Origin: Candidatus Nomurabacteria bacterium | Lineage (GTDB): Bacteria; Patescibacteriota; Minisyncoccia; Phycocordibacterales; SBAW01 | Direction of reading: 5' to 3' | Length of the DNA: 64,000 nucleotides | NCBI GenBank assembly: GCA_943356495.1 | Contig: CALRFF010000003.1 | Span: 551 to 64,550 of the forward strand | Program-made: the position numbers and the translations under genes | The notes under the pieces: model-generated | What the model was told of the DNA's origin: nothing | The model's input: only the letters and a program-made list of their open reading frames with translations | The model's database searches: none | Part shown: one piece after another, positions 1 to 60,019 of the stretch | How positions within the stretch are numbered: the stretch's first letter is position 1 | How the letters are laid out: each line of letters starts with the position of its first letter

Positions 1-3000
1 ACCATACCTCCAACACCTCTGCACCCGAGACAGACTATCTCTTGCTCGACTCAACGGCCGCCACTGCAGACGACGACACGTACTGGAACGACACCAAGCC
101 GACTGCATCTGTCTTCTCCGTCAAGTCTGCCACTGCCGTCAACGCCTCCGGCGCCACCTACGTCGCATACCTCTTCGCCTCCACCACGGGCTTCTCCTCA
201 TTCGGCTCCTACACGGGTAACGGCAGTGCCGACGGGCCCTTTGTCTACACTGGTTTTAAACCTCGCTTTGTGCTTGCTAAGCGGACCGACTCAACAGGTG
301 ACTGGTTTATGATCGACTCTGCGCGGACTACCACTACTAACCCCATAATTCCGACTGTGTGGGCCGATTTGGCGGATGCGGAGCAACTCAGCACCGCTCA
401 GGCTGACTTTAATGCAAACGGTTTTAAGCTCCGTTCCACCGGAGGCATAAATACCAGCACAGCAACCTATATCTACGCCGCATTCGCCGACGTGCCGTTC
501 AAATATTCCTCCGCAATCTCCGACGTCGGCGCGCTCTCCATCGCCAACTCCGCGCGGTTCATCTCGGGCAACAGCGATTATTTGAGCAAGACACCCGGAA
601 GTGCAAGCAACCGCAAAACCTGGACTTTTTCAACCTGGGTGAAACGAGCTGAGCTTGGCGCATATCAAAATATCTTTCAGATAGGAACAGCGGGTTCAGA
701 TTCGACGACATTCAATTTTCGTTTCGACTCCTCCGACCGTCTCGATATTGGAGGTGGCGCGACCACGTGGCGCGTTACGAGTGCGGTGTACCGCGATCCC
801 GCCGCTTGGCTTCATCTAGTGTTGGTAATGGATACGACCCAAGCGACTGCCGCCGACCGAATAAAACTGTATGTGAACGGCTCGCAGGTAACGGCGTTTG
901 GCACAAACGCTAATCCGACGCAAAATGCCGATCTCGCCGTCAATAACAACGCACTGCACGCAATTGGTAGGCACAATGACCCCACACAGTATCTCAACGG
1001 ATATCTATCGGATGCTCACTTGATAGACGGCGCGGCGTTGGCGCCGACATGCTTTGGCGAGACAGACGCTAATGGATATTGGAGGCCGAAGACCTACAGC
1101 ACCGCGTCGCCCTGCGCGGCATACGGCACCAACGGATTCAAGCTCTCGTTCGGCACGGGGAGTGCGCTCGGCACCGACACTTCCGGCAACGGCAACACGT
1201 GGACAGTCAACGGTCTTACCTCGGTCGACCAAGTTATCGACACACCCACTAATAGCTTCCCTACATTGAGCCCTATCGGTAATGTGGTTGCAGCGACGAG
1301 CCGCAGTACTCTGGCGAACGGCAATCTGAAAGCATCATCGGGTGCCGCGGTAAACGGATTACTCGCTACGCAAGAGTTCCCCACAACCGGCAAATGGTAC
1401 TCAGAGATAACACTGAATACCGCGCCGCCCTATCCATCACTCGGCCTAGCAATTTCTCAAACTGCCAACCAGCAGTACATAGATGCGGGTGTATATCTTA
1501 ATAGCTCTACGGGCATTTGGTACAACTCACAAAGTGCCACCGGACCGGCTACGAGCGATGCCGTAGGATTGGGCACATGGTCGAGCGGCGACGTGCTGAA
1601 CATCGCCTACGATGCGGACAATGGCAAGATATGGTTTGGCAGGAATGCCACCTATTACAACTCGGGAGATCCCGCCGCCGGCACTAATGCTACTTTTTCC
1701 GGTTCTGTTGTCGGTAGTAACAGATGGCAAGTCGGTGTCGGGACATATACCGGAGATTTGACCGTCAACTTCGGCCAGGGAGGTTTGGCCAGCCTGACCT
1801 ACGACTCCGCAGCGGGTGGCTACTTTAAATACACCCCACCCTCGGGCTACAAAGCCCTCTCGACCGCCAACATGGCGACACCCACCGTGACGGTGCCTAA
1901 AAATTATTTTGATGCCGTTACTTATCTCGGCACAGGCGCTGCAGAGACAGTCAAGGCATATGCGGTAACAGAAACATTTTATTACACGGGTGCGGACCAA
2001 ACATGGACAGTCCCAACAGGAGTCACCTCAATACGCGTAAAAGCGTGGGGTGCGGCAGGAGGCTCAACATCGCAAACGGGGGCTAACGCGGACTATGCAG
2101 GCGCGGGCGCGTATGTGACCGGAGAGATAAGTGTAACTGCAGGACAAACCTTAAAGTTGGTAGTAGGGCAGGGCGGTTCGCCCCGTGCAACCTCGGGGGG
2201 GCAGACGTATGGTGGTGGTGGCGGCGCCGGTACAAACAATGGGGTGTCGCCGGGCACGGGCGGGGGATATTCTGGCATATTTCTTACCTCGGTAAGCCAA
2301 GGCAATGCACTCGCCGTCGCGGGCGGCGGCGGCGGGTCTGCCAACACGAGCGACGCCGCTCAGTCTGGCGGAGCCGGAGGAGCCACGACCGGCTCGACAG
2401 GCACAGGGCCCGGCGGTACGGGTGGTACTACCTCGGCAGGTGGTACGGCCGGCACCGCAGGCTCAGGCCAAACCAACGGCTCGGCTCTTACCGGCGGCGA
2501 CGGCGCAACGCTCAACGGCGGCGGCGGCGGCGGCGGATACTATGGCGGCGGCGGCGGCGGGCAAACGACATCCGGCGGCGGCGGTTCAAGCTACCTTGGC
2601 ACCATGACAAATGCGTCAACAACCGCGAGTTCGGATGGTCATACTGCACCAAAAAAATCTGATCCCAATTATCCTAGTGGTGGAGTTGGCGAGGCTGATA
2701 CCACAGGAAATGTATCGGGTGGAAGCGGGCATATTGTCATTAGTTACAATATAAGCAACGTCACCGGCTTTACCCCCGACATCGTGTGGATTAAAGACCG
2801 TACGAGTGCGAATGCGCACGGGATTTTTTCCACTTCAACAACGCTGTATCCAGCGTGGGCGAGCAACGGCTCTGCGGCCGAAGGGGGCGGCACTACTGCC
2901 TTGCTCTCGTTTTTGAGTAACGGCTTTAGTCTCGGTGCATCTACCACGGTTAACACCAGCGGCGACAGTTATGTAGCCTGGATGTGGAAGGAGAGTGCAA

Positions 3001-3704
3001 CCGCCGGTTTTGACATCGTTACCTACACGGGCACGGGCGCCGCACAAACTATCGCCCACAGCTTGGGCAAAGCGCCTGACTTTATTATCGTCAAGCGCCG
3101 CGACGGCGCCGGCAGCCCGGCGGTGTATCACACCTCCAACACCTCGGCACCTGAGACCGACTACCTTTTGCTTGACTCGACTGCCGCCACCGCCGACGAT
3201 GATACTTACTGGAACGATACTAAACCGACTACGTCGGTGTTTAGCGTCAAGTCCAACACCAACACTAATTCCTCGGGCGCTACCTACGTGGCGTATCTCT
3301 TTGCCTCTACCACCGGCTTTTCCAACTTCGGCACTTATATAGGCAACGGCTCCGCCGACGGGCCGTTTGTGTATACGGGCTTCAAACCGCGTTTCCTGAT
3401 GTGGAAGCGAGTAAACAGCACAGGCTCATGGGGTGTCTATGATACGGTCCGTTCCACGTACAATCCGGCAACCGCAGGACTTCTTTTTGAGGAGAAGGGA
3501 GCAGAATTTTCCTACGATGCTTTTGATGTCCTCTCCAATGGATTCAAAGTACGTGCTGCAGGAGCAGGCACAAACGCGAGTAGCGATACACATATCTACT
3601 TTGCGTTTGCTGAACAACCGTTCAAATACTCCGCCGCTTCCGCATCCTCGGCAGCCTCCACTTTCGTCCAAGCAGTCGCCTTCCTCCTCGGCATGACGTT
3701 CTAA
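1..3704 (+). CDS. Very large secreted/surface protein, 5'-partial. Domains: LamG/ConA-like (~nt 600-900), SPRY-like (~nt 1380-1800), ALK-type glycine-rich domain (~nt 2000-2600). A ~130-aa module is duplicated at the N and C termini.
   Basis: The ORF continues in frame to nt 3 (HTSNTSAPETDYL upstream of the TTG at 42), so the gene starts outside the window. LamG_3-like pattern WTFSTWVKR...WLHLVLVMD...IKLYVNGSQV. SPRY-like GKWYSEITLN...GIWYN...GDVLNIAYDADNGKIWFGRN. Gly-rich block WTVPTGVTSIRVKAWGAAGG...LKLVVGQGG...GGGGGGGYYGGGGGG. The terminal modules (aa ~1-90 and ~1045-1135) are about 90 % identical in protein but diverged in nucleotide sequence. Confidence 0.7.
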   Translation, partial: HTSNTSAPETDYLLLDSTAATADDDTYWNDTKPTASVFSVKSATAVNASGATYVAYLFASTTGFSSFGSYTGNGSADGPFVYTGFKPRFVLAKRTDSTGDWFMIDSARTTTTNPIIPTVWADLADAEQLSTAQADFNANGFKLRSTGGINTSTATYIYAAFADVPFKYSSAISDVGALSIANSARFISGNSDYLSKTPGSASNRKTWTFSTWVKRAELGAYQNIFQIGTAGSDSTTFNFRFDSSDRLDIGGGATTWRVTSAVYRDPAAWLHLVLVMDTTQATAADRIKLYVNGSQVTAFGTNANPTQNADLAVNNNALHAIGRHNDPTQYLNGYLSDAHLIDGAALAPTCFGETDANGYWRPKTYSTASPCAAYGTNGFKLSFGTGSALGTDTSGNGNTWTVNGLTSVDQVIDTPTNSFPTLSPIGNVVAATSRSTLANGNLKASSGAAVNGLLATQEFPTTGKWYSEITLNTAPPYPSLGLAISQTANQQYIDAGVYLNSSTGIWYNSQSATGPATSDAVGLGTWSSGDVLNIAYDADNGKIWFGRNATYYNSGDPAAGTNATFSGSVVGSNRWQVGVGTYTGDLTVNFGQGGLASLTYDSAAGGYFKYTPPSGYKALSTANMATPTVTVPKNYFDAVTYLGTGAAETVKAYAVTETFYYTGADQTWTVPTGVTSIRVKAWGAAGGSTSQTGANADYAGAGAYVTGEISVTAGQTLKLVVGQGGSPRATSGGQTYGGGGGAGTNNGVSPGTGGGYSGIFLTSVSQGNALAVAGGGGGSANTSDAAQSGGAGGATTGSTGTGPGGTGGTTSAGGTAGTAGSGQTNGSALTGGDGATLNGGGGGGGYYGGGGGGQTTSGGGGSSYLGTMTNASTTASSDGHTAPKKSDPNYPSGGVGEADTTGNVSGGSGHIVISYNISNVTGFTPDIVWIKDRTSANAHGIFSTSTTLYPAWASNGSAAEGGGTTALLSFLSNGFSLGASTTVNTSGDSYVAWMWKESATAGFDIVTYTGTGAAQTIAHSLGKAPDFIIVKRRDGAGSPAVYHTSNTSAPETDYLLLDSTAATADDDTYWNDTKPTTSVFSVKSNTNTNSSGATYVAYLFASTTGFSNFGTYIGNGSADGPFVYTGFKPRFLMWKRVNSTGSWGVYDTVRSTYNPATAGLLFEEKGAEFSYDAFDVLSNGFKVRAAGAGTNASSDTHIYFAFAEQPFKYSAASASSAASTFVQAVAFLLGMTF

Positions 3705-11079: not shown

Positions 11080-13860
11080 TTACCGTTTTTCAGTAATTGT
11101 AAGCAGTTGGTCTACAGGGACCGCTGTACTAACTGTTTTAATACCCGAGGGCCACAGCACCGTAATGTCGACGGGGTTTGTTTGCTTGCCGAGTCCGAAT
11201 AGTAGGCGGTGCGAGCTCTGCGCGTAGAAACTGCTCCCCAGCAACACGGTTTGTGTTTGGGTAGTGCCGCCGGCGGTAACAGACACGACGGCGCCCACGG
11301 CGTCGGCGTTGCTTACGGTGCCCGTAAGATTAACTGCAATATAATGTGCGCCCGTGCCGGTGTTGCGGTACAGGGTCGGCGGTGTGCGCGCGACACCAAA
11401 GGCAAAGTATCCGACAAACAGGTCGGGGTAGCCGTCGTTGTCGTAGTCGGCGACCGCCGAGGGCCGGGTCAGTTGGCCGTCTGCGGGGCAAAAACCCTGT
11501 GCGGTGACATCGGCAAAACCGGTGGCGGTGCGTCGGTACAGCTTGTCCGAGCGGTACAGCGCGCGGGTAAGGTCGAGCCGCGGCAGGTCAGAGCGCGTCT
11601 CGACGTTGCCGTTGCCGACAAACAGGTCGCGCCGGCCGTCGTTGTCGTAGTCAAACAGGTTAATGCCCCAGGCGATACTAAGCGGGTTAAGCCGGTGTAC
11701 CCAGCGCTCGTCGGTAAAAGTGCCGTTACCGTTGTTTTTGTACAACTCGGTCTTGCTGATGTTGCTTACCGCCACATCCTGCAGGCCGTCGCCGCTGTAG
11801 TCGCCGACGTCGGCCCCCATGCCGTCGCCGTAAAAGTTCATACCCGCCTCGGCGGTCATGTTAGAGAATGTCAGCCTGCCGTCGTTGCGCATAAGCAGGT
11901 TGGTGCCCCAGTCGACGCTTAAAAATATGTCCTGCCTGCCGTCTTGGTTATAGTCGAACGATACCGGTTGGTAAAACGAGTTGGATACGGCGTCGTACGG
12001 GTGTTCGGCGGTAGAAAATGACTGACCGGTGCTGCTAGCGTAGAGCGCGTGCAGTTGCGCGGCAAACGGCGCGTGCTCGGTAAACCCATTGCCGCCTCGG
12101 TTGGTAAACAAATGCGCCGAGCCCGGTTTGTATGCGGTAGCAAAAAAGAGGTCGTCGAGGTTGTGGTGCAATGCCTGCGGGTCTTTGGTAAGGGGGATCC
12201 GTTCCACCGTAAGCATGCAGCCGCCGTCTGCCACAAACGCGTCGCGCGCCGCGGCGCGGGCAAACTCCGGCGGTCCGTACTTTTGCAGAATCGCGGTGAC
12301 GACCGCGCTGTCGCATATAATTTGTTGCTGCGTATTGAGATACGGTTCAAAAAAAGCTTTAAGTAACGCCCAGTTGCCGACCGGCGAGAGGTCGTAGTAG
12401 TTGGCCTGCGCCGCGTACACAAAGTCGAGGTACCCGTCGCTGTCGTAGTCGGCAAAGGAGAGCGTGCCGCCGCCCGGCGGCAGGGTAAACGCATTCAGCC
12501 CGAGCGCCTTCGTTGTTTCGCTAAAGCCGCTGCCGGTATTTTTAAATACGCGCACGGCGGTGACTTTTGGTTTTTGTGCCAGAGGTTCGCCGTCTACGGC
12601 CGTACGATAGTCTTGCATGCCTTGTACGACAAACAGGTCGCGCCGGCCGTCATTGTCGTAGTCGGCAAAGAACGCGCTTTGCGAGTTAACGGCGGGCAAG
12701 CCCGCAGCGGTTGTGGTGTCGACAAACCCCAGAGGGGTATTGCGATACAACCGGCTGGGTTCGTCGATACTCGAGACAAACAAGTCGTCGCGGCCGTCGC
12801 TGTCGTAGTCGCCCCACGAAGCGCCGGTGGTCATGCGCGCCGAGGCATTAAATGATTTGTCAGGGACAAACGCAGGAGTTTTTGAGCATTGTGTTATCGA
12901 CGGGCTTTCGACACCCATCAGCAAAAATGCCGGCGAGACACGGGTAAATTCTACATACAGGCCGTCTTTGCGTATGGTCTGTACGTAGGCGGCCCCCATG
13001 GCCAGTACCAAAAAAAGACACGCAAGACTATTTTTGGGCAGTGCGGCCGCTTTGGTGGGCACAAGTCGCATGGCGTATGCGGAGAGGAGCGTAAGCACTG
13101 TTACGCCAAACGATGCGACAAACAGCGCATACTTGACCCCCAGCATTTCCAGCAAGAAGAATGCCGAGGCAACCCCGATGCCGTGCAGTATCCGCGGGTA
13201 CGTGCCCGTGGGCGAGGTGCGCGGGTCGGTAATCATAAACGAGGCAAAAAGCACCAGCGAGGGGCCGAGTATCCCGTAGTGGTGCACCGACAATATATCG
13301 AGATGGAAAGGAACTGATATAAGGAGGAGTGCGGTGTAGCTGAGCAAAAAAGACAACGTTGTTATCCATGCGCCTGCGCGGTAGGAAATAAAAAAGCATA
13401 TAGCCGCTACCAGCGCGTAGACCCATAGACTGTTGCCCCATTGCGTAAACTCGACTGTTGCGGCGGAGGGGAAGGCAAATACCAACACCACGACGGCGAT
13501 GTTCGACGGATTAAAAATGTGTTTACCGTTTGCTTTGAGTACGTATTTTGAGCCTACGGCGACGAGTGCGGCAAGAAAAAAGTATATGGGGTCGGTTGCT
13601 CTAAAAAATATAGCTATCCCAAGCGCCGCGGCTACGGCGCTTGCGGGGAAAAACAGCTCAAACGGGAGACCTTTGGCACGGCGCGCTATGTAGGTAAAAA
13701 GAAGTTCGGCCGCAACAGCGGTGGCAAGCCCGACGACGATGTCTGTCCACCCGAGGTTAAACTCCAGCACCGTCTTGCCCAAGACAACAAAGAACGCTTG
13801 CGCGGCTATAAGGAGATATAGCGGGTTCAGCCCGTTAACGATGTCGCTAACGGGCTTCAC
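11080..13860 (-). CDS. CRTAC1-family protein (FG-GAP/VCBS repeats plus a C-terminal ASPIC/UnbV domain) fused to an N-terminal ~280-aa polytopic membrane domain
   Basis: At least seven DYDNDGRRDLFV-type FG-GAP repeats. C-terminal UnbV-like LLGSSFYAQSSHRLLFGLG...VLWPSGIKT. The N terminus has ~8 predicted TM helices. Confidence 0.65.
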   Translation of the reverse strand: MKPVSDIVNGLNPLYLLIAAQAFFVVLGKTVLEFNLGWTDIVVGLATAVAAELLFTYIARRAKGLPFELFFPASAVAAALGIAIFFRATDPIYFFLAALVAVGSKYVLKANGKHIFNPSNIAVVVLVFAFPSAATVEFTQWGNSLWVYALVAAICFFISYRAGAWITTLSFLLSYTALLLISVPFHLDILSVHHYGILGPSLVLFASFMITDPRTSPTGTYPRILHGIGVASAFFLLEMLGVKYALFVASFGVTVLTLLSAYAMRLVPTKAAALPKNSLACLFLVLAMGAAYVQTIRKDGLYVEFTRVSPAFLLMGVESPSITQCSKTPAFVPDKSFNASARMTTGASWGDYDSDGRDDLFVSSIDEPSRLYRNTPLGFVDTTTAAGLPAVNSQSAFFADYDNDGRRDLFVVQGMQDYRTAVDGEPLAQKPKVTAVRVFKNTGSGFSETTKALGLNAFTLPPGGGTLSFADYDSDGYLDFVYAAQANYYDLSPVGNWALLKAFFEPYLNTQQQIICDSAVVTAILQKYGPPEFARAAARDAFVADGGCMLTVERIPLTKDPQALHHNLDDLFFATAYKPGSAHLFTNRGGNGFTEHAPFAAQLHALYASSTGQSFSTAEHPYDAVSNSFYQPVSFDYNQDGRQDIFLSVDWGTNLLMRNDGRLTFSNMTAEAGMNFYGDGMGADVGDYSGDGLQDVAVSNISKTELYKNNGNGTFTDERWVHRLNPLSIAWGINLFDYDNDGRRDLFVGNGNVETRSDLPRLDLTRALYRSDKLYRRTATGFADVTAQGFCPADGQLTRPSAVADYDNDGYPDLFVGYFAFGVARTPPTLYRNTGTGAHYIAVNLTGTVSNADAVGAVVSVTAGGTTQTQTVLLGSSFYAQSSHRLLFGLGKQTNPVDITVLWPSGIKTVSTAVPVDQLLTITEKR

Positions 13861-14849
13861 AACGGTCGTACTGCAAAGGGCGCCGGCGGGTTAGCCAAGT
13901 TGTGCTCCAATTGCTCGCGTTTTAGCAGACCTTTTTGCGCTCCTATCTCTTGCAGCACGGCCGAGGCGTTGGTCGCCCCCCACATTAGCGCTGTCTGCAG
14001 GTCTTTGCCCAGTTGGAGCGCGGCCACGGTGGTCGAGGCAAAAGCGTCACCTGCGCCCGTAATTTCGTACGGTGGGCGCGGGTCGGGGTATCGGGGGATA
14101 AACCAGAAGTTATTTTCTTCATCCACGGCCGTGGCGCCGCGTACGTCGTCGGTGATGACAACGATCTTAGGGCCCAACGCTTTCATCTGAGTCAGTAATG
14201 CTTTGGCGTCTTGTGTTGGCTCGATACCTAATATCCGTTCCGCCTCTTCTTTGTTGCAAAACACAATGTGCGCGCGCTGGTACACTGCAGCCAGCGCTTC
14301 TTTGCCGAATTTCATCTGGTAGGTGCCGGGCTGGAAGGCGAGTTTAACGCCGGGATTTTTTTGCAGATACTCTATCCACGTACTGTGATACGGTAGAGAA
14401 TTTTCGCTTAGGGAAGAAAGGTAGAGCCATGCCGGCGGCTCGGCAACGGCGGGCACCGCATAGTCAAACGTTTCGTGCTTTACCAAAATGGTGCGTTGGC
14501 CCTCAAACCACAGCACGTAATGGTAGTTAGTTTTCTTACCGTTCTGTTTTTCTACAAAATCAGTGTTTACTTGGTCGGCTGCAAGGCTGGCAAGGCACTG
14601 TGCCCCCCACTGGTCGGCGCCGACATAGGCCCGCAGGCCGGAGCTAAGCCCGAGGCGGGCCGCCGCAACAGCGGCGTTGGCCGAGTTGCCCACCGCCGGC
14701 ACTATCGTTGATGACTCGAAAGGGATTTTGTCGCCCCAACGCATGCATATCTCGCAGGACTCGTCGTTTATGTTGCAGTGCACGCGCGCGTCTTTAAGCC
14801 TGATAAAGGCGTCTACCACCAGGTCGCCTACCGCAAGGAAGTCCATATA
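13857..14849 (-). CDS. PfkB-family carbohydrate kinase (ribokinase-like). The start is trimmed to MDFLAVGDLVVD.
   Basis: N-terminal DxxxxGD motif and C-terminal ITGAGDAFASTTVAALQLG anion-hole motif. The longer ORF reaches 14960. Confidence 0.75.
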   Translation of the reverse strand, partial: YMDFLAVGDLVVDAFIRLKDARVHCNINDESCEICMRWGDKIPFESSTIVPAVGNSANAAVAAARLGLSSGLRAYVGADQWGAQCLASLAADQVNTDFVEKQNGKKTNYHYVLWFEGQRTILVKHETFDYAVPAVAEPPAWLYLSSLSENSLPYHSTWIEYLQKNPGVKLAFQPGTYQMKFGKEALAAVYQRAHIVFCNKEEAERILGIEPTQDAKALLTQMKALGPKIVVITDDVRGATAVDEENNFWFIPRYPDPRPPYEITGAGDAFASTTVAALQLGKDLQTALMWGATNASAVLQEIGAQKGLLKREQLEHNLANPPAPFAVRPL

Positions 14850-18843: not shown

Positions 18844-18881
18844 CGCGGTTTGGCGCAAAAAGCAGAGGTATACTGTAGGTA

Positions 18882-21800
18882 TTGATGCAGCAACAAAGCC
18901 GCAACCTATGGATATTACTGGGCGCGGTTGCCGTAGCCGCGGGTATCCTGTCGCAGGGTTTTTTTGCCGAGCAATTTAGGCTAGTCTTGGCTACACTGCC
19001 CGCTGCCTCGCAAAGCGCCACAACTGCGCTTGGTGTCGAGCAAGGCTTGCCCTCGTATAGCGGCTACCCGTCGCCGACCAACTGCAGCACCGGCGAAAGT
19101 CTTTGTTACCCGAACACGCGCATCACTATGGTAAGCGTGCGCGACCAAGGCGGCGCCTCGGGCGCAGGGGAGACAAAATATATGGATTTAGCAGGGGTTG
19201 CAGGCTCTTCCGGTACCCCGGTAGTATTGGCGACACTTAACCCCACTACCATTCAATGGTCGTGCCAGCCGTCGCAGGTCGTAACCAGTCCTTACTATCA
19301 ATCGCAGACCTGCTCCTCCACTTACGACTGTAGCTGTTGGTTGGACTCCTATGGTGGTGTATTTTGCAGCACGTGTACCAGTTATTACGAGTGCGGGTAT
19401 TGGACCACACAAACCAACACCTACACGATGAGCGCGGGGTCCACCGGGAGCGGCGGAGCATTTACCGCAGGCGGCCTTAGCGGGTCGCAAACGCTTACCT
19501 ACCCGGTGGGTACGTACGAAACCGGAGAGGTCGTGCCCTACACCCTTTCCTGCAACTACGGTACACCCGTAAGTATCAACGTCACCATGGGGTCGACGAT
19601 TACCACCACCTCGCTGTCGGCAAGTGCTACCACCTTGCGCGCGGGGCTCGACCAAACAACGCTTACGGTTACCGCCACTGATGCGGTTGCCGACTCCTGC
19701 CAGTTGTTAGGTAACGCGGGTGTCATTAAGTCATACACGGGCACTAGTGTTAGCGACATAATAGACGTAGGGCCTTTCAACAACGAAAGCGAATCACAAA
19801 CCGTACGCATAAGGTGTATTACGCCGGAGGGCTTCAGCAAGACGTCGTCCGTTACTCTGACGATAAAAATACCGCCGGCACTTTCTATCACCGCAAACAA
19901 CCTCCCTACGGTCGCCTTTGTCGCGCCGAACACCAGCGCCGATATACGCTGGACCTCGAGCAACCAATATCCTAACTCCTGCTCGGTCAGCTATACCGCG
20001 TACGGCGGCTCGTGCGCCGCCGCGGCCAAGTATGTCGCCACTAAAGGCGCCTATGCATGGAAGGCGTTTACCGTGGACGGGGATACCTTTTTGGCGGTCG
20101 CCAACGCGTACGACGGCACGACGTACAACACCGACTCCAGTATTTACAAATGGGTGTCGAGCTTGAGCTGTTTCGGTAAAGACGCCGAGTCGCCGTGCGG
20201 GACGTCGTACCAAGACATAGCCACCAACGGCGCCTCCATGTGGGAGTCGTTTACCGTCTCGGGCGATACGTACCTTGCGGTCGCCAACAGCCGTAATGAC
20301 ACGACCCGTCTGGTGAATTCAAACATATACAAATGGCTTTCCGCACAGGCGTGCTTCGGGGCGGACACGACCTGCGGCACGGCGTACCAGTCGATACCCA
20401 CAAGCGGCGCGGTCGACCTGCAGCCTATTACTGTCGGTTCTACGTTATATTTGGCCGCGGCCAATTATCGCGACGACACGACCTACGCCACCAGCAGTAC
20501 GCTGTATCGCTGGATGTCCTCGGGGACCAATTGCCCTTCGGGCGGCGGCTTCGGCAACGGTGCTGCCTGCGGGTCGGTGCTGCAGTCGATAGCTACTAAA
20601 GGTGCCTACCGCATGGAAGCATTTGTAGTAGAAGGTGAGTCGTACTTGGCGGTCAGTAACGCCTACGACGGCAGCGGGTATAACCTTCCTTCCCATATCT
20701 ATAAATACACCGCGACCGGCACTAACTGTCCCTCGGGCGGAGGCTTTGGCAACGGCAATACGCATACCTGCGGGACGCCGATACAAACCATAAACACGAG
20801 CGGGGCATACGGGTTTAAATTCTTTATGGTCGGCAGCGCGCCGTACCTTGCGGTCGCCAACTCCTACGACGGCACCACCTTCCAGATCAACTCAAAGATT
20901 TATAAATGGATGAGCGGCAGCAAATGCTTCGGCAGCGGGACTACCTGTAGTGCCGCGTTTCAGGTATTGGCAACCAAGGGCGCCACGCAGCTGCAGACGT
21001 TTACTATCGGCCCGGAGACGTACCTGCTTGCCGCCAACGCGTACGACGGACTTACCTACAATATAAGTTCCAGCATGTACCGCTGGATGCAAAGCTCCCA
21101 GTGCTTCGGCAACAGCACCTCTTGTGGCACTGCGCTCGAAGTAATCCCCACGAGCGGAGCGGCATGGTGGGAGCCGGTCACAGTAAACGGCGACGTGTAT
21201 TTGGCGACCGCCAACTACTTTAACGGCACTACCCGCAACATAAACTCCGCGATTATGAAGTGGTCTCCGAACGGCTGCGGCGACACAGAGTTTGGTACTC
21301 CGGCCACGTGGACCGCCGACCAAAGCCCCGTCGCCGGCTACCCGACGGGAGTCTTTTCCGGCGCTCGACTGTATACGCTTGTTTGTAAATGGATGGACAA
21401 CACCACCGCCAGCAGTACCAGCGTCATCGTATCGGTGTTGCCGGAACTTATATTGAGCGCCAACGGCAGCACTACCAACCCTGTGTATGTGACCCCCGGC
21501 AGCGCGGCGCTTATACAGTGGTCGGCAAAGAATGTGCAAAACGGTTCCTGCGGCGTCACCAACACCTACGACGCTTCTAATTGGGCAGGGGACAACAACT
21601 CCGCCGGCTACTCCTCGCCGGTGTTTAGCAACGGACAGGAAATAACCTACACGCTCGCCTGCCTTGGGCTGGACGGCGCACCGCTTACTAAGGTAATGCG
21701 GGTCATCGGCGCTACGCCGGTGCCGCTGCTTTCCAGCCTTTCTATATCCGCCTCGCGCGTGGTTAAAGGCGGCCGCCCGACTATCCACTGGAACGCCACC

Positions 21801-22028
21801 GACCTTGATGCCGGCATCGAGTGTAGCGTTACACCTACCTTGCAGGGCGGTGCCTCGGCCTCTACGTGGGATGGCTCGGGTACTACATGGAGTTCACCCG
21901 TGGGCGGCGCGATAGGGCCCATTATCACCGTGGCGACCGCCTTTACGCTTAAGTGTGTTAATGCGGCCGGCGACATCGCGCAGGTCTCTGCGGTAGCCAA
22001 CCTGATTCCGGGCTTTAAGGAGATATAA
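18882..22028 (+). CDS. Secreted multi-domain protein with two Ig-like modules, a seven-bladed EAR/EPTP-like beta-propeller (nt ~20028-21270), then two Ig-like modules
   Basis: Seven ~55-aa repeats of the form C-x-G...Q-x-I-x-T-x-GA...F-x-V-x-G-x-x-YLAVAN-x-x-(D/N)-x-T-x-x-x-S-x-IYKW, which is the EAR/EPTP consensus. N-terminal signal peptide. Confidence 0.7.
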   Translation: MMQQQSRNLWILLGAVAVAAGILSQGFFAEQFRLVLATLPAASQSATTALGVEQGLPSYSGYPSPTNCSTGESLCYPNTRITMVSVRDQGGASGAGETKYMDLAGVAGSSGTPVVLATLNPTTIQWSCQPSQVVTSPYYQSQTCSSTYDCSCWLDSYGGVFCSTCTSYYECGYWTTQTNTYTMSAGSTGSGGAFTAGGLSGSQTLTYPVGTYETGEVVPYTLSCNYGTPVSINVTMGSTITTTSLSASATTLRAGLDQTTLTVTATDAVADSCQLLGNAGVIKSYTGTSVSDIIDVGPFNNESESQTVRIRCITPEGFSKTSSVTLTIKIPPALSITANNLPTVAFVAPNTSADIRWTSSNQYPNSCSVSYTAYGGSCAAAAKYVATKGAYAWKAFTVDGDTFLAVANAYDGTTYNTDSSIYKWVSSLSCFGKDAESPCGTSYQDIATNGASMWESFTVSGDTYLAVANSRNDTTRLVNSNIYKWLSAQACFGADTTCGTAYQSIPTSGAVDLQPITVGSTLYLAAANYRDDTTYATSSTLYRWMSSGTNCPSGGGFGNGAACGSVLQSIATKGAYRMEAFVVEGESYLAVSNAYDGSGYNLPSHIYKYTATGTNCPSGGGFGNGNTHTCGTPIQTINTSGAYGFKFFMVGSAPYLAVANSYDGTTFQINSKIYKWMSGSKCFGSGTTCSAAFQVLATKGATQLQTFTIGPETYLLAANAYDGLTYNISSSMYRWMQSSQCFGNSTSCGTALEVIPTSGAAWWEPVTVNGDVYLATANYFNGTTRNINSAIMKWSPNGCGDTEFGTPATWTADQSPVAGYPTGVFSGARLYTLVCKWMDNTTASSTSVIVSVLPELILSANGSTTNPVYVTPGSAALIQWSAKNVQNGSCGVTNTYDASNWAGDNNSAGYSSPVFSNGQEITYTLACLGLDGAPLTKVMRVIGATPVPLLSSLSISASRVVKGGRPTIHWNATDLDAGIECSVTPTLQGGASASTWDGSGTTWSSPVGGAIGPIITVATAFTLKCVNAAGDIAQVSAVANLIPGFKEI

Positions 22029-30634: not shown

Positions 30635-34533
<3,899 letters not shown>

Positions 34534-34588: not shown

Positions 34589-35725
34589 TTAGTAGGAAAT
34601 GTAGGTCGCGGTTGCGCTGTTGTTGTACTTGCTGCCCTCGAAGACCTGATTGTTCGGGTCGACGGTGATAGTAACCGCCTTCTGCGCGTTGTAACCGGTG
34701 TTGCCGGCCGGCTGGTACGGGTACCAATTGGTATACGGCTGCGTGTAGCCGCACGGCGTTGCGCCGCAACCGCCGGAGTAGCCCGGCACTGCGCACGGGC
34801 CGTACAGGTTGCACGTACCGTAGGTGTAGCCTGCCTGACCGGTAGGCAGGCTGTTGGTGCCGTAGTTGGTGGCGCCGTACTGGGTGTTGCTGTTGTAGTC
34901 GCTAAAGTTGAGCGTGTAGACTATTTTGTCGCCCGGGTACAGAGCGCGCTGCGGACCGGACGGGTAGGTGTAACTGCCGTTAATAGGGAGTATCGCGTTA
35001 AAGCTCCAGTTAGAAGGGGAGACGTTGGTACCGACGTTCTCAACCACAAACTGCGCCGTGGCGTTGCCGTTCTGCGAACGGACCGAGCTAATAGCAACCG
35101 CGAGGTCGGCGTAACCGTAGAGGTTACTCGTGCGGCCGCTTGCGACGTAGGTAGTGTTAGAGGGGCTCTTGGTCGTGGTCGGTTTAACTGTGGCCTTTTT
35201 AGTGGCCGGTACCGTCATAGCGCCGGTGGCGGTTGCAGTAATAGCGCCGCTCGAAAGCTTGGTGGCGGTAACCGTAATAGTCGTTTTTGCGTCAGTAGTG
35301 CCGCTGTACACAGGGGTAAGCGCGAGTGCGGAGTTTGCCTGCGTGTAGTTAAACGGCGTGTCGCACGCTACCGTTTGGGTAGCGCCGGTCGGGACCGGTG
35401 CCTTAAACGAAAGGCCCTCAACACACGAGTAGGAAAGGGTGTAGGCGTATGCGCCCGTGCCGCCCTGATGACCCCAGCTTACGGTAGTTGCAGAACCCGC
35501 GGTTGCGGTAGCGGGGACCGATATAGTCAGGGTCTCGCGGACGACGGTTTGGGTTACCGGCGCGTTGGTAGTGCCGCCCGTAAAGAGTGAGGAGATAAAA
35601 AAGGCGAGCTGTATAATACCCCAAGCGCCGAGGAGCAGTATCGCCAACAGGCCGATAACCGCGACGACGCGGAGGACGTTTTCCTTAAAAGTGTGTTTGG
35701 TTGTCATACGGTTAGAGGGTAGCAT
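34589..35725 (-). CDS. Secreted protein with Ig-like/CARDB-like domains
   Basis: N-terminal signal anchor. FVVENVGTNVSPSNWSFNAIL...YPGDKIVYTLNF (CARDB-like). Cys-rich C terminus. Confidence 0.5.
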   Translation of the reverse strand: MLPSNRMTTKHTFKENVLRVVAVIGLLAILLLGAWGIIQLAFFISSLFTGGTTNAPVTQTVVRETLTISVPATATAGSATTVSWGHQGGTGAYAYTLSYSCVEGLSFKAPVPTGATQTVACDTPFNYTQANSALALTPVYSGTTDAKTTITVTATKLSSGAITATATGAMTVPATKKATVKPTTTKSPSNTTYVASGRTSNLYGYADLAVAISSVRSQNGNATAQFVVENVGTNVSPSNWSFNAILPINGSYTYPSGPQRALYPGDKIVYTLNFSDYNSNTQYGATNYGTNSLPTGQAGYTYGTCNLYGPCAVPGYSGGCGATPCGYTQPYTNWYPYQPAGNTGYNAQKAVTITVDPNNQVFEGSKYNNSATATYISY

Positions 35726-35791
35726 GATACAATATACTTGTCAAGTAGGCAAGTTGACAAAACACCAAAAACTGATATACTATAACGGTAT

Positions 35792-36415
35792 ATGGCACAA
35801 CGCCGCTTTAGCTTTGCTCTGACTTTTCTGGCGCTCTTTGCGCTTACTTTTGCGTTTTTGGGTTTTGCCGATGCCTTGCCCAATGCGGTGACTCGGGATC
35901 CCTCACAAGAAGTCCTCGGTTCTCCCGTCTCGGGTCAAGACCCTCGCGGGCCAGACTATCTTGCTCAGAATCCTGAGTCACCTATCCGTGTCGTTGCTAA
36001 AACAGTCGGTTTGGATGCAACCGTAGGTAACCCCGACACTACCGATGTTGCCGCGCTCGACAAGGCGCTCGAGGACGGCGCCGTGCGGTACCCGACCTCG
36101 GCCCTGCTTAATGTCGACGGCACGGTGCTTTTGTTTGGTCACTCTTCCTACTTGCCGGTGGTATATCACCAGTACTACAAAACGTTTAACGGTATACAAA
36201 AACTTAAGACGGGGGAGACGATAAGCGTCTACTCCGGTACTGCCGAGTATCGCTACAGCGTTACCGGTGTGCGTGTTGCCAACGCCGAGGAAGAGAACAT
36301 CGAGCTGCCTGCAAGCGGTAAGCACTTGGTCTTGGTTACCTGCGACTCCTTTGCCAGCAAGTCGAGCCGCTATGTGGTACATGCCGATTTTGTCGGTGTT
36401 TTTGCGGCTAATTAA
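35792..36415 (+). CDS. Sortase (cysteine transpeptidase)
   Basis: Signal anchor. Catalytic His LLFGHSS, Cys LVLVTCDSF, Arg SRYVVHA. Confidence 0.8.
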   Translation: MAQRRFSFALTFLALFALTFAFLGFADALPNAVTRDPSQEVLGSPVSGQDPRGPDYLAQNPESPIRVVAKTVGLDATVGNPDTTDVAALDKALEDGAVRYPTSALLNVDGTVLLFGHSSYLPVVYHQYYKTFNGIQKLKTGETISVYSGTAEYRYSVTGVRVANAEEENIELPASGKHLVLVTCDSFASKSSRYVVHADFVGVFAAN

Positions 36416-36432
36416 GGCCTTCAGATAAGGGC

Positions 36433-36461
36433 TTGACAAGCAAGCCCGCTTGGTGTATACT
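36433..36461 (+). promoter_or_regulatory. Consensus sigma70-type promoter (TTGACA-N17-TATACT) upstream of the small secreted ORF
   Basis: cTTGACAagcaagcccgcttggtgTATACTag. The -35 box sits in a GGGCTTG/CAAGCCC hairpin. Confidence 0.55.
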
Positions 36462-36525
36462 AGAAACAGACTATAAGATCTATCTAGCCCACCCAAAACT
36501 TCACCAACGGTCGAGGAGACCAGTC

Positions 36526-37044
36526 ATGAAGACCCATATTGTTGCGCTCGCCGCCTTCCTGGCGGCACTTGCGACTTCGACTCCGGCTACCGCATATGCG
36601 GAACCCGGCGACTACGCCAAGACCTCCAAACGCTTCCAGACCTACGTCGACATCTGCGGCATGAGGGAATCGCCGCGGATTCAGGACGAGGCCGCCAAGA
36701 AGCTCGAGCAGATGTCCGTGAAGCAGTTCGAACTTCATATGGAAGTCTGCCCCAAGCCGCGTACCAAGGCCGTCGCCAATCCGGCGAAGGACAAGGTCGC
36801 CGACAATAAGGTTCTGCCGTTCGTCGCTGGGGCGGCGGTCGGCACGGTTGTCGGGGCGGCGGTCGTGTCGCAGCGTCCGCGCTACGGTGCACCGGTCGAG
36901 CGGCCGATGTATCGCGGCGATCGGGAGCTCCTCGAGCTCCAATCGCTCGGTCCGCGCGGCCGAGTGATCCGTAACCGCCCAGCACCGGCCGGAGCCATTC
37001 CCTGCATCGTGCGGGGTGTGGTCGGCAAGTGTGTGCCGAGGTAA
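36526..37044 (+). CDS. Small secreted cysteine-containing hypothetical protein
   Basis: gaggag RBS. Signal peptide MKTHIVALAAFLAALATSTPATAYA. AAG/GAG-rich codon usage that differs from its neighbours. Followed by a perfect 13-bp stem-loop at 37065-37094. Confidence 0.5.
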   Translation: MKTHIVALAAFLAALATSTPATAYAEPGDYAKTSKRFQTYVDICGMRESPRIQDEAAKKLEQMSVKQFELHMEVCPKPRTKAVANPAKDKVADNKVLPFVAGAAVGTVVGAAVVSQRPRYGAPVERPMYRGDRELLELQSLGPRGRVIRNRPAPAGAIPCIVRGVVGKCVPR

Positions 37045-37201
37045 CGGTGGGATCAACTACGTTCGGTGCGCTTGTTTTAGGAAACAAGCGCACCGGACAC
37101 ACTATCTTCAATTTTCATACTCCTGACTTAATCTAAACTTGAGTCCGGAGCGTGAGTATTGACATTTATTAGGTTCTCAGTTACTTTTTGTTTTCAATTA
37201 T

Positions 37202-38113
37202 ATGCAAAGCATTACTAACACCAAGGCCACCACGGTTGCGCTTATAGCGGCGCTTATAGTTGCTGCGCTCTTTGTTGCGGCACCCAAGGCACAAGCGGCT
37301 GACCTCGGCGACTTTGGCGGCTCGTATGATTTTTACCCGGACGCTCCGTCGTACGATTTCTACTCGGATGCTCCTTCTTACGATTTTTACCCTTCTGCCC
37401 CCGCATCGGCTCCGTCGTACGATTTCTACCCGGATGCTACTTCGTATGACTTCTATCCCGGCTACAGTTCATACACTCCGTCTTACGGCGGTTCCTACGG
37501 CGGTGGCAGCATGGGCGGCGGCTTCCCGTTCGGCGGTTCGAGCGGCATGAGCCAGTCTCAGTCGCAGAGCTCGACCAACGTCAACACGAACGTCAATACC
37601 AATACCTGCACCAGCGGTAGCTGCAATACCGCAATCAACGCTCCGACTAACATCGTAGTCTCCGGCGGCGGCTCTTCTAATAACAGCTACCCGGTCTACA
37701 CGCCTGTATACACTCCGGTCTACACCCCGCCGGTCTATCAGCCGACGTACTACCCGACCTATCAACAGCCTATCGCGTACAACAATACGCCGTATGTGTC
37801 GCTCTCTGCGGTACCGTACACCGGTCTTGAGCTGGGGCCCGTGGGCACGGCACTGTACTGGGGCTTCCTTATCGCTTGGTGCCTCGTTGCGGCGTACCTT
37901 ATAGTCGTCAAGCGCGTGCAGAACAAACTCGTAAGCGGTCTCAATACCTTCCTCTTCGGTGAGCCTTCTCAGAAGACTGTCGTTCAAAAGTCCTCGGATC
38001 TCCCGTCTGGGTCGGGCCAGACTTTTGCCCGCCAGTCTTCTGCTCCGGTTCGCGACAGCTTCTCTAACATCGACCCGTTTGTCGCGTCGCAAATCAAGCG
38101 CGCCGCGTTCTAA
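37202..38113 (+). CDS. Secreted tandem-repeat protein (5x SYDFYPDAP, PVYT repeats) with a sorting-signal-like VPYTG motif plus a hydrophobic helix and KR
   Basis: Signal peptide ALIAALIVAALFVAAPKAQA. Repeats encoded at 37331-37468. LSAVPYTGLELGPVGTALYWGFLIAWCLVAAYLIVVKR, followed by a ~50-aa tail. Confidence 0.6.
   Translation: MQSITNTKATTVALIAALIVAALFVAAPKAQAADLGDFGGSYDFYPDAPSYDFYSDAPSYDFYPSAPASAPSYDFYPDATSYDFYPGYSSYTPSYGGSYGGGSMGGGFPFGGSSGMSQSQSQSSTNVNTNVNTNTCTSGSCNTAINAPTNIVVSGGGSSNNSYPVYTPVYTPVYTPPVYQPTYYPTYQQPIAYNNTPYVSLSAVPYTGLELGPVGTALYWGFLIAWCLVAAYLIVVKRVQNKLVSGLNTFLFGEPSQKTVVQKSSDLPSGSGQTFARQSSAPVRDSFSNIDPFVASQIKRAAF
37331..37468 (+). repeat. Imperfect 27-nt tandem repeat (x5) encoding SYDFYPDAP
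   Basis: tcgta(t/c)ga(t/c)tt(t/c)tacccggatgctcc(g/t) units read directly. Confidence 0.8.
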
Positions 38114-38152: not shown

Positions 38153-39361
38153 TTAGGCGCGGTTTTTGATTTCCTCCTGCAGTTTAGAAATTATTTCAGC
38201 AATAGGGAGCGCGCCGAGTTTGCCGGTGCGGCCCTCGAGCGTCGCGGTACCGGCCGCTACCTCGGCATCGCCGATAACCAGCAGGTAGGGAACTTTTAGT
38301 GTCTTAGCTTCGCGGATTTTTTTACCCAAGCTTTCACCACTCTCATCCAATTCTGCACGGATACCGGCCTTGAGTAGCTGCTGATAGGCATTATGTGCAA
38401 ACGCCATATGGCCTTCGCCGATAGGGAGCACGCGCGCCTGTACCGGCGAAAGCCAGGTGGGCAGTACGCCGCCCAAGTGCTCCAGCAGTACCGCGACGCA
38501 GCGCTCTATCGAGCCGGTAATCGCGCTGTGTATCATAACGATGCGCTCCTTCTCGCCTTTTTCGTTTATGCAGTTTAAGTCAAACCGGTCGGGTTGGTTG
38601 AGGTCAAGCTGTATGGTGGCTACCTGCCACTCGCGCCCTGCGGCATTTTTAGCCATAAAGTCGAGCTTTGGGCCGTACAGCGCCGCCTCGCCCGGACCTT
38701 CTATATAGTCGGCGCCGCGCTCCTTGGCTATCTCGCGCAACTGCTCTTCGGCCATGTCCCACACGGCTGGTGTGCCGATGTATTTCTCGGGCGCGGCGGG
38801 GTCGCGGAAGGAAAGCCGGACACGTAGCGAAAAGCCGAACTGCTTATAAAAGGTATCGACAATATCCCAGATTTTTAGAAACTCTTCTTTAATCTGGCTG
38901 GTGCGGCAAAACACGTGGCTGTCGTCTTGGGTAATCGAGAGCACACGCGTCAGGCCCGAGAGCTCGCCCGACTGCTCATCGCGGTAGACCATGGTGGTTT
39001 CGGCGTAGCGTTGCGGCATTTCGCGGTAGCTGTGCGGGCGGCGGTTAAAAATTTGGGTGTGGTGCGGGCAGTTCATCGGCTTTAAAGCCATCTCGCGGCC
39101 GTCGCGGCTGGTTATGCGAAACAAGTCTTCTGCAAATTTGTCCCAATGGCCCGAGGTTTCGTAGAGCTCTTTTTTAGTGAGATGGGGGATAGTGACGCGG
39201 CTGTAGCCGTAGGCGCTGCGCAGCTCCCATACAAACTTGTCTAACTCTTCGCGCACCACGGTGCCTTTGGGCGTCCATAGCGGGAGCCCCGGGCCCACTA
39301 GATCGCTAAAGGTAAATAGGTCGAGCTCTTGGCCTATCCTGCGGTGGTCGTTGTCTTCCAT
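38153..39361 (-). CDS. thrS: Threonine--tRNA ligase, catalytic core plus anticodon-binding domain only (402 aa; no N-terminal TGS or editing domains)
   Basis: RIGQELDLFTF, ALKPMNCPHH, class II motifs, C-terminal anticodon-binding region. Confidence 0.85.
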   Translation of the reverse strand: MEDNDHRRIGQELDLFTFSDLVGPGLPLWTPKGTVVREELDKFVWELRSAYGYSRVTIPHLTKKELYETSGHWDKFAEDLFRITSRDGREMALKPMNCPHHTQIFNRRPHSYREMPQRYAETTMVYRDEQSGELSGLTRVLSITQDDSHVFCRTSQIKEEFLKIWDIVDTFYKQFGFSLRVRLSFRDPAAPEKYIGTPAVWDMAEEQLREIAKERGADYIEGPGEAALYGPKLDFMAKNAAGREWQVATIQLDLNQPDRFDLNCINEKGEKERIVMIHSAITGSIERCVAVLLEHLGGVLPTWLSPVQARVLPIGEGHMAFAHNAYQQLLKAGIRAELDESGESLGKKIREAKTLKVPYLLVIGDAEVAAGTATLEGRTGKLGALPIAEIISKLQEEIKNRA

Positions 39362-52979: not shown

Positions 52980-53158
52980 CGATAGCGAAACCAACGGGGG
53001 CTCCGCAAGGAGCAGATTGCGTATCGAGTGGGGGTTTCGATACAAAGAGTGCGACAGATTTTATAAAGCTTCATAAAGAAGCTAGAGGGAGTTGTATGCT
53101 CCCGCTCTTTTCGTGTTTTTAGCCGCAACACATTACTAATTCTTCACCCCACACTCAT

Positions 53159-60019
<6,861 letters not shown>

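Follow-up and report, generated by a model that had tools for sequence, protein, structure and literature searches.

The locus studied here raises the question of whether a sortase and a Tyr-rich repeat protein, encoded close together on the same strand, form an enzyme and its substrate. Both genes lie within the window, by which is meant the whole 64-kb stretch of a Patescibacteria (candidate phyla radiation, CPR) contig that was analysed, and all coordinates count from its first letter. The same sequence is also public as contig CALRDF010000004.1 of assembly GCA_943354845.1 and in several metagenome assemblies. The envelope of the ultrasmall, mostly uncultured CPR episymbionts is poorly understood. 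More than half of the genomes of this group are reported to encode sortases (PMC6744442). Comparison of related loci points, with a probability of about 70 %, to a dedicated sortase–substrate cassette of Paceibacteria/Parcubacteria-type CPR bacteria, in which the Tyr-rich protein would be cleaved at xPYT/G and joined to an amine of the envelope. On sequence evidence, the PYTG protein is most likely the private substrate of the nearby sortase.

The sortase and the PYTG module

The product of 35792–36415 is, by all sequence comparisons made, a catalytically intact sortase, in agreement with the original prediction of an intact triad. It matches Pfam PF04203 over residues 73–199 (60.8 bits against a gathering cutoff of 26.6, E 1.4e-16), and His117, Cys184 and Arg193 occur without exception in an alignment of 42 sortase sequences, where they sit in the segments LFGHSS (His), LVTCD (Cys) and SSRYVV (Arg). 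Bacillus anthracis SrtA (PDB 2kw8), the top match of the PDB sequence search (E 2e-8) and 29 % identical when the structures are aligned, has TLITC and SKRYVV where the window enzyme has LVTC and SSRYVV. The AlphaFold model, with a predicted local distance difference test (pLDDT) score of 85.7, begins with a membrane helix, continues with a disordered linker and has the eight-stranded beta-barrel fold of sortases. Foldseek returned 125 PDB matches for this model at E <= 0.001, and sortases account for 50/50 among the matches listed. More than 1200 homologues share 55–73 % identity with the enzyme and are named Paceibacterota, Parcubacteria or Patescibacteria. In the 42-sequence alignment the membrane helix of the sortase is conserved as well; F8, F12 and, just past the helix, P30 do not vary, and F16 and F22 hardly do.

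An attempt to place the enzyme in a sortase class gave no assignment. The general sortase-family model gives the window sortase 34 bits, below its cutoff of 39.35, and the class models likewise remain below theirs (bits/cutoff: GN 33.8/158; SrtD 30.1/140; D 29.1/165; E 25.2/160; C 22.4/160), the class GN model TIGR03784 being the second-best NCBIfam match. Neither the PDB sequence search nor Foldseek favours a single class; solved sortases described as A, C, D, E and F match about equally, at 13–29 % identity. As judged from these scores the enzyme belongs to none of the defined classes.

The 303-aa repeat protein agrees with its original description as a secreted tandem-repeat protein with VPYTG, a hydrophobic stretch and KR. 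Its N-terminus has a Lys-containing N-region and a hydrophobic core, and ends in AAPKAQA before AD. The exported part is rich in Tyr, Pro, Ser and Gly, with 0 Lys and 0 Arg in 175 residues, and VPYTG lies outside the tandem repeats. Twenty-eight residues (LELGPVGTALYWGFLIAWCLVAAYLIVV), about 23 of them hydrophobic, separate VPYTG from KR; the helix starts 5 residues after the motif, is about 23 residues long and includes the conserved residues Y219, W220, F222, L223, W226, C227, A230, A231, Y232 and L233. Unlike in classical sorting signals, the basic KR is not near the C-terminal end. The tail that follows had been put at about 50 aa; it measures 65 aa and is itself conserved.

Motif, helix and tail belong to a protein module with many relatives. 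A search with the last 117 residues retrieved 16 of them, which have in common PYV(T/S)LSxVPYTGL(D/E)LGP, the helix YWGFL..WC..AAYLI, K(R/K)VQN, FLFG, a variable linker and a terminal D.FI.SQI.R. When a profile of the module was searched against 1.84 billion protein cluster representatives, 812 clusters matched at E <= 1e-3, of which 72 passed E <= 1e-30. In 150/150 of the proteins listed from these 812, which are 95 to 680 aa long, the module occupies the extreme C-terminus. Among the matches listed, PYTG is present in 145/146 new cluster representatives. Motif position 1 is V in 118, A in 11 and T in 9, with L, I and M rarer, whereas P, T and G are invariant and x is Tyr (145/146 representatives). 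P2, T4 and G5, the three residues that sortases need, are the invariant ones. Conservation sets in abruptly 8 residues ahead of the motif and is near-maximal through the helix, with an information content above 3 bits per column at most helix positions. The basic pair after the helix is also retained (of 145 sequences, first residue K137/R4, second R85/K58).

The original prediction had treated Val at position 1 as a deviation from LPxTG. The Val is indeed present, but at a variable motif position for which VPPTG and VVPTG are precedents (PMC3019223); what sets the motif apart is the Tyr and the flanks. Paralogues at the same locus even differ at this position, with MPYTG and VPYTG in locus L014, IPYTG and VPYTG in L021, and LPYTG and VPYTG in L035, and one sortase appears to serve them both in each case. 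The prediction had also named two outcomes that would speak against it, a clearly different motif in other sortase substrates of the genome together with an absence of other VPYTG proteins, and a grouping of the sortase with an LPxTG housekeeping class. Neither outcome was obtained; the enzyme could be placed in no defined class.

The part that follows the motif comes in three sizes. It measures 38–61 aa in second paralogues, 83–124 aa in proteins of the window type, which end in D.FI.SQI.R, and 258–288 aa in distant lineages, where it includes a conserved helical domain. Some paralogues end 10–25 residues past the helix, so the tail appears dispensable for the core; the short-tailed paralogue of L059 (IPYTG-helix-KRGFSPRA) is a textbook sorting signal. 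Across paralogues and lineages the tail spans about 10 to about 250 aa, a 25-fold range or so, with no such change in motif and helix. On this sequence pattern the module has a constant core of motif plus helix, to which the tail is an add-on.

The passengers carried by the module are either low-complexity repeats of Tyr, Gly, Ser, Asp and Pro (window type) or tandem immunoglobulin (Ig)-like repeats with the signature TLTWTT.NA.S.SI..GIG ... TTYTGTA ... C. An N-terminal hydrophobic segment is found in 123/139 family members. Over the family the passengers contain 11.8 % Tyr and 1.35 % Lys, with zero Lys in 86/139. In distant Paceibacteria (L070–L083, e.g. L072:7271-10882) about 270 aa come after the PYTG-helix core and hold a conserved cytoplasmic helical domain (FI.ALL.GDRD.VFG ... 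CALDDAYR ... DGSYS ... ALTRAL), and the exported part has 3–8 tandem Ig-like repeats. Neither the module nor its tails, this helical domain included, have a match in Pfam, NCBIfam or PDB beyond spurious low-complexity ones. Sorting-signal models, including TIGR01167 (LPXTG anchor), likewise give none for the whole protein at E <= 1 or for the isolated module at E <= 10, a search in which HMMER filters may lose very short weak matches.

Scanning species-representative genomes with the module yielded 78 loci, labelled Adlerbacteria, Kaiserbacteria, Nomurabacteria, Paceibacterota, Parcubacteria, Minisyncoccia or, in many third-party metagenome-assembled genomes (MAGs), 'Saccharibacteria'. A sortase gene on the same strand is present in 50/50 loci that have at least 5 kb of sequence upstream of the first module gene, at a median gap of 1.4 kb. 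A sortase is missing from 19 loci, each of which reaches a contig edge less than 2 kb upstream. Approached from the sortase side, with five homologues picked solely for their long contigs, 5/5 loci carry 1–2 module genes downstream. The number of module genes per locus is one (60), two (18) or three (1). Two genomes have two module matches each, and in both these are the two sides of one contig break in the same locus. The species-representative scan thus placed every module gene that it found at this one locus. In each of the sampled genomes, sortase and module genes are inherited together at a single locus.

Many MAGs named 'uncultured Candidatus Saccharibacteria' (L006, L011, L014, L016, L017 and others) have the locus, synteny and sortase of the Paceibacteria type in common with genomes labelled Adlerbacteria or Paceibacterota, and the 'Saccharibacteria' labels of these third-party MAGs look unreliable.

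Proposed sorting at xPYTG and the alternatives

By analogy with LPXTG proteins, a route for the repeat protein can be proposed. The Tyr-rich protein would be exported by way of its N-terminal signal peptide, and the helix and KR of the module would hold it in the membrane. The xPYTG motif would be shown about 5 residues outside the membrane, where the anchored sortase (Cys184/His117/Arg193) would cut between Thr207 and Gly208, as its homologues do at LPXT/G. The sortase would then move the exported part to an envelope amine, most likely a peptidoglycan precursor, and a 96-residue remnant, Gly208–Phe303, consisting of the helix and the conserved tail, would remain in the membrane. The original proposal of a non-LPxTG substrate for the nearby sortase is to this extent strongly supported by comparative genomics, through the invariant PYTG, the C-terminal position of the module and the shared locus and strand; cleavage, the acceptor and any role of the remnant are inferred, cleavage by homology with LPXT/G.

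Several points weigh against sorting. Ordinary sorting signals show far less conservation in helix and tail, and in some lineages a segment of about 270 aa with a conserved cytoplasmic domain follows the motif, which suggests a function of its own for the uncleaved or C-terminal part. Additionally, no NCBIfam sorting-signal model recognises the module. The adjacency of the genes may in part be inherited gene order rather than functional coupling, and the scan for candidate substrates covered about 10 % of one genome.

One alternative, already raised in the original prediction, is that the PYTG protein is bitopic and stays uncleaved in the membrane. Its PYTG and the flanks would then be a structural juxtamembrane element, perhaps packed against the conserved helices of the sortase or of the CARDB-type membrane protein encoded next to it (34589–35725), the tail would be functional, and the sortase would act on proteins encoded elsewhere. 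The very strong conservation of the membrane helix is consistent with such a protein, as are the conserved D.FI.SQI.R at the end of the tail, the roughly 270 aa after the motif in distant lineages with their conserved cytoplasmic domain, and the conservation reaching 8 residues upstream of the motif, an extent that LPXTG signals do not usually show. However, this alternative needs a coincidence, namely invariant P, T and G at exactly the positions critical to sortases, with canonical spacing of helix and K/R, in the neighbour of a sortase. The short-tailed paralogues are moreover indistinguishable from classical sorting signals. With lengths that differ about 25-fold next to an unchanging motif and helix, the tail is not part of the conserved core; as a modular add-on ranging from about 10 to about 250 aa it is therefore no evidence against sorting.

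Gene order bears on the same alternative. The block of gyrB, CARDB membrane protein, sortase, module, thrS and dnaE is syntenic in nearly all sampled genomes, with further genes between sortase and module, and locus-wide synteny could account for the adjacency of sortase and module. Given this shared order from gyrB to dnaE, adjacency is weak evidence when taken by itself. The interior of the block is less fixed. The sortase gene lies between two module genes in four loci (L035, L053, L056 and L065), so that the internal order shifts and the linkage persists; in L088 there are insertions on both sides of the trio and the linkage again persists; and the genes between sortase and module are freely replaced among loci. 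Changing internal order with kept linkage argues against a purely historical adjacency.

The uncleaved alternative also requires other substrates for the sortase. A scan of the 64 kb for C-termini with xPx[TSA][GASN], a helix and K/R gave no second candidate, and the same scan over about 1.2 Mb of related loci gave module variants and spurious frames only. The window encodes three large predicted surface proteins, with LamG, ALK/LTK glycine-rich and DUF7483 domains (3–3701, + strand), an RnfD-like membrane domain fused to FG-GAP/ASPIC repeats (11083–13890, - strand) and seven EPTP repeats (18879–22025, + strand). A sortase-type C-terminus is absent from all three. On balance an uncleaved bitopic protein is considered unlikely.

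The module may also be two things in one, a sorting signal and a membrane remnant (the helix with its tail of 65 to about 250 aa) that is functional itself. This extension of the cassette reading is doubtful at present and is advanced tentatively. It is possible that the remnant reports or positions the anchoring of the surface protein from the cytoplasmic side. It could also join the sortase and the CARDB protein in a membrane complex by way of their conserved helices; since the three co-inherited proteins each have a conserved helix, a complex of sortase, module and CARDB proteins is suggested on sequence grounds. The tail-end consensus (G)IDPFIxSQIxR may bear a faint likeness to the FtsZ C-terminal peptide (D-I-P-x-F-L-R), which recruits division proteins.

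A third alternative retains cleavage at PYT/G and changes the acceptor, in that the sortase would join the exported part to another protein or build a pilus-like polymer. The exported part might be ligated to Lys261 (in YPGDK) of the CARDB protein instead of to peptidoglycan. CARDB-protein homologues (329 were found, many with Pfam CARDB PF07705) occur in most of the loci whose sequence extends upstream of the sortase, divergently transcribed, and their membrane helix contains an invariant LLGAWGIIQ, which suggests a membrane complex. Lys261 is the sole well-conserved lysine of their exported part (35/40 homologues), yet it is replaced by R, Y or N in 5/40. Against a polymer stands the composition of the passengers, which have 1.35 % Lys overall and none in 86/139, the exported part of the window protein being among those with 0 Lys. 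Self-polymerisation via lysine is excluded for most family members, because their passengers are nearly lysine-free, and the class C sortase model, at 22 bits against a cutoff of 160, does not favour polymerisation either. Ligation to the CARDB protein, or polymerisation, is regarded as very improbable.

Finally, short motifs can arise in a low-complexity exported part rich in Y, P, T and G, but VPYTG lies outside the repeats and in a module near-maximally conserved across 812 clusters, and a functionless chance resemblance is refuted by this. Cleavage and anchoring by the neighbouring sortase thus remains the preferred reading.

Relation to known sortase systems

A tripartite sorting signal consists of a motif, a helix and basic residues (PMC3237569, PMC8703055). 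The window protein matches this layout with VPYTG, 5 residues, a helix of about 23 residues and KR, behind an N-terminal signal peptide. The pair as a whole is like sortase A and its LPXTG proteins in Firmicutes (S. aureus and B. anthracis SrtA) in the fold and the His-Cys-Arg triad of the enzyme, and in a substrate with signal peptide, xPxTG, hydrophobic helix and basic residues. It is unlike sortase A in that one enzyme appears to be matched to 1–3 paralogues at one locus instead of to many substrates. The signal departs from LPXTG in its xPYTG with an invariant Tyr and a variable position 1, in its conserved helix and flanks, and in the cytoplasmic tail of 65 aa (up to about 250) that most members carry past the basic residues.

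A sorting enzyme with a single adjacent target has been termed a 'dedicated system' (Haft & Varghese 2011, PMC3237569). One example is the class GN 'marine' sortase TIGR03784 with its lone adjacent LPXTG-type target, where an enzyme is likewise paired with a single target (PMC3237569). The window sortase scores 33.8 bits against a cutoff of 158 for that family, and so is not a member. The hosts also differ, being CPR bacteria here and Gram-negative Proteobacteria there, as do the targets, a Tyr-rich low-complexity or Ig-repeat protein with an extended cytoplasmic tail as against a vWA/vault-like protein.

For the motif itself the Streptococcus pyogenes pilus sortase Spy0129 (class B) is informative, as it recognises EVPTG, VPPTG, QVPTG and VVPTG (PMC3019223). 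Because Spy0129 takes Val for Leu at or before Pro, V-P-x-T-G is a bona fide sortase motif (PMC3019223). Spy0129, however, polymerises pilins via a lysine acceptor, whereas the passengers here are essentially lysine-free, and the window sortase shows no similarity to a specific class.

A precedent for a functional helix-plus-tail remnant after sortase cleavage is provided by C-pep sensing in Streptococcus gordonii, where the SGO_1180 two-component system senses the membrane remnant of LPXTG adhesins (summarised in PMC11326707). That remnant is a short, generic peptide of the sorting signal, unlike the conserved 96 aa (up to about 290) with motifs of their own that would remain here; the module–sortase locus encodes no sensor kinase.

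In the literature searched, no paper describing a VPYTG or PYTG motif with a sortase was found, and CPR/Parcubacteria sortases are treated there in general statements only. The system differs from the known ones in its clade (CPR), the invariant Tyr with conserved flanks and helix, the long conserved tail and an enzyme outside the defined classes. There is no new principle unless the remnant or the acceptor is unconventional. If the remnant were functional, or the CARDB protein the acceptor, the locus would represent a use of sortases that Gram-positive models do not describe, and one that is central to the envelope in a very large clade without cultured members. The conserved helix and tail in any case raise the question of a function for the post-sorting fragment itself, which classical systems barely address.

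A clade-wide cassette of one enzyme and one substrate would offer a biochemical handle, with a defined motif, xPYTG, and a defined substrate family. The motif could be assayed in vitro with a peptide, e.g. quenched Abz-LSAVPYTGLELG-Dnp, used to predict anchored surface proteins of Paceibacteria, and could add a new specificity to sortase-based protein ligation.

Neighbouring genes and DNA elements

The features of the locus are collected in Table 1. The CARDB-type membrane protein, which the original prediction had missed, is a conserved member of the cluster. Its AlphaFold model resembles generic Ig/fibronectin type III-like sandwiches in Foldseek (RbmA, transglutaminase C-domains, antibodies), with low template modelling (TM) scores and no enzymatic clue among these matches. 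Searches of Pfam, NCBIfam and PDB with this protein returned nothing past CARDB and spurious low-complexity matches.

Table 1. Coordinates of genes, protein segments and DNA elements at the sortase–PYTG locus (positions in the window)
Feature	Position	Strand	Details
gyrB	32455–34533	+	
CARDB-type membrane protein	34589–35725	-	378 aa (372 aa in public records); N-terminal membrane helix, two beta-sandwich domains, disordered stretch; divergent from sortase gene
Divergent promoter-like region	35731–35783	both	+ TTGACA-16-TATACT with TG extension; - TTGTCA-18-TATATT; consensus pattern match only
Sortase	35792–36415	+	207 aa; membrane anchor aa 2–25, disordered linker aa ~30–60, barrel aa ~61–205
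Sortase catalytic residues	His117 nt 36140; Cys184 nt 36341; Arg193 nt 36368	+	
Promoter-like site	36433–36461	+	TTGACA-17-TATACT, upstream of Cys-protein gene; 11/12 consensus matches
Cys protein	36527–37044	+	172 aa, 4 Cys, secreted or bitopic; between sortase and repeat protein
Stem-loop	37061–37098	+	Perfect 17-bp, without U-tract, after Cys-protein gene; -33.4 kcal/mol, z = -7.76
Repeat protein, predicted sortase substrate	37202–38113	+	303 aa; signal peptide, low-complexity exported part, C-terminal PYTG module
Signal-peptide-like N-terminus	37202–37297	+	aa 1–32, end AQA/AD; read from sequence
Tandem repeats	37322–37487	+	(P)SYDFYPDA units; Tandem Repeats Finder
Short (PVYT)n array	37690–37729	+	Tandem Repeats Finder
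C-terminal module	37787–38110	+	aa 196–303: PYVSLSAVPYTGLELGP, membrane helix, KR, cytoplasmic tail
VPYTG	37811–37825	+	aa 204–208; predicted cleavage Thr207/Gly208, by analogy with LPXT/G
Membrane helix and KR stop-transfer pair	37841–37915	+	Helix aa ~214–236, KR aa 237–238
Cytoplasmic tail	37916–38110	+	65 aa; VQN...L..FLFG juxtamembrane, variable linker, end motif
Tail-end motif IDPFVASQIKR	38069–38101	+	aa 290–300
Short thrS	38153–39361	-	
dnaE	beyond thrS	-	

The gene between the sortase and the repeat protein encodes a small Cys protein for which a promoter and a stem-loop of its own had been proposed, and both a promoter-like site and a hairpin are found at the corresponding places. 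The gene starts at ATG 36527; the TTG at 36433 is the -35 hexamer and not a start. Its G+C content is 64.7 %, against 54–58 % in the neighbouring genes. None of 200 shuffled sequences (0/200) folds as well as the stem-loop, which is a probable terminator or RNA-stability element, as far as its sequence indicates. A role for the Cys protein in the system was considered and ruled out, as its family occurs in only 6 loci and unrelated small secreted proteins stand in its place elsewhere; from its distribution it is a variable passenger gene. The gap between sortase and module (36416–37201 in the window, and the same place in L005–L088) is a hotspot of unrelated small secreted Cys-containing proteins that vary by genome.

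The thrS product has only 402–408 aa, with the catalytic tRNA-synt_2b and the anticodon-binding domains and without the N-terminal TGS/editing region, and this short form is kept across relatives (L084–L088 and most related loci). At 53123–60016 on the + strand, one unbroken open reading frame of 2298 aa contains the full set of RNA polymerase Rpb2 (beta) domains at aa 31–1060 and the full set of Rpb1 (beta-prime) domains at aa 1078–2172, an apparent rpoB-rpoC gene fusion.

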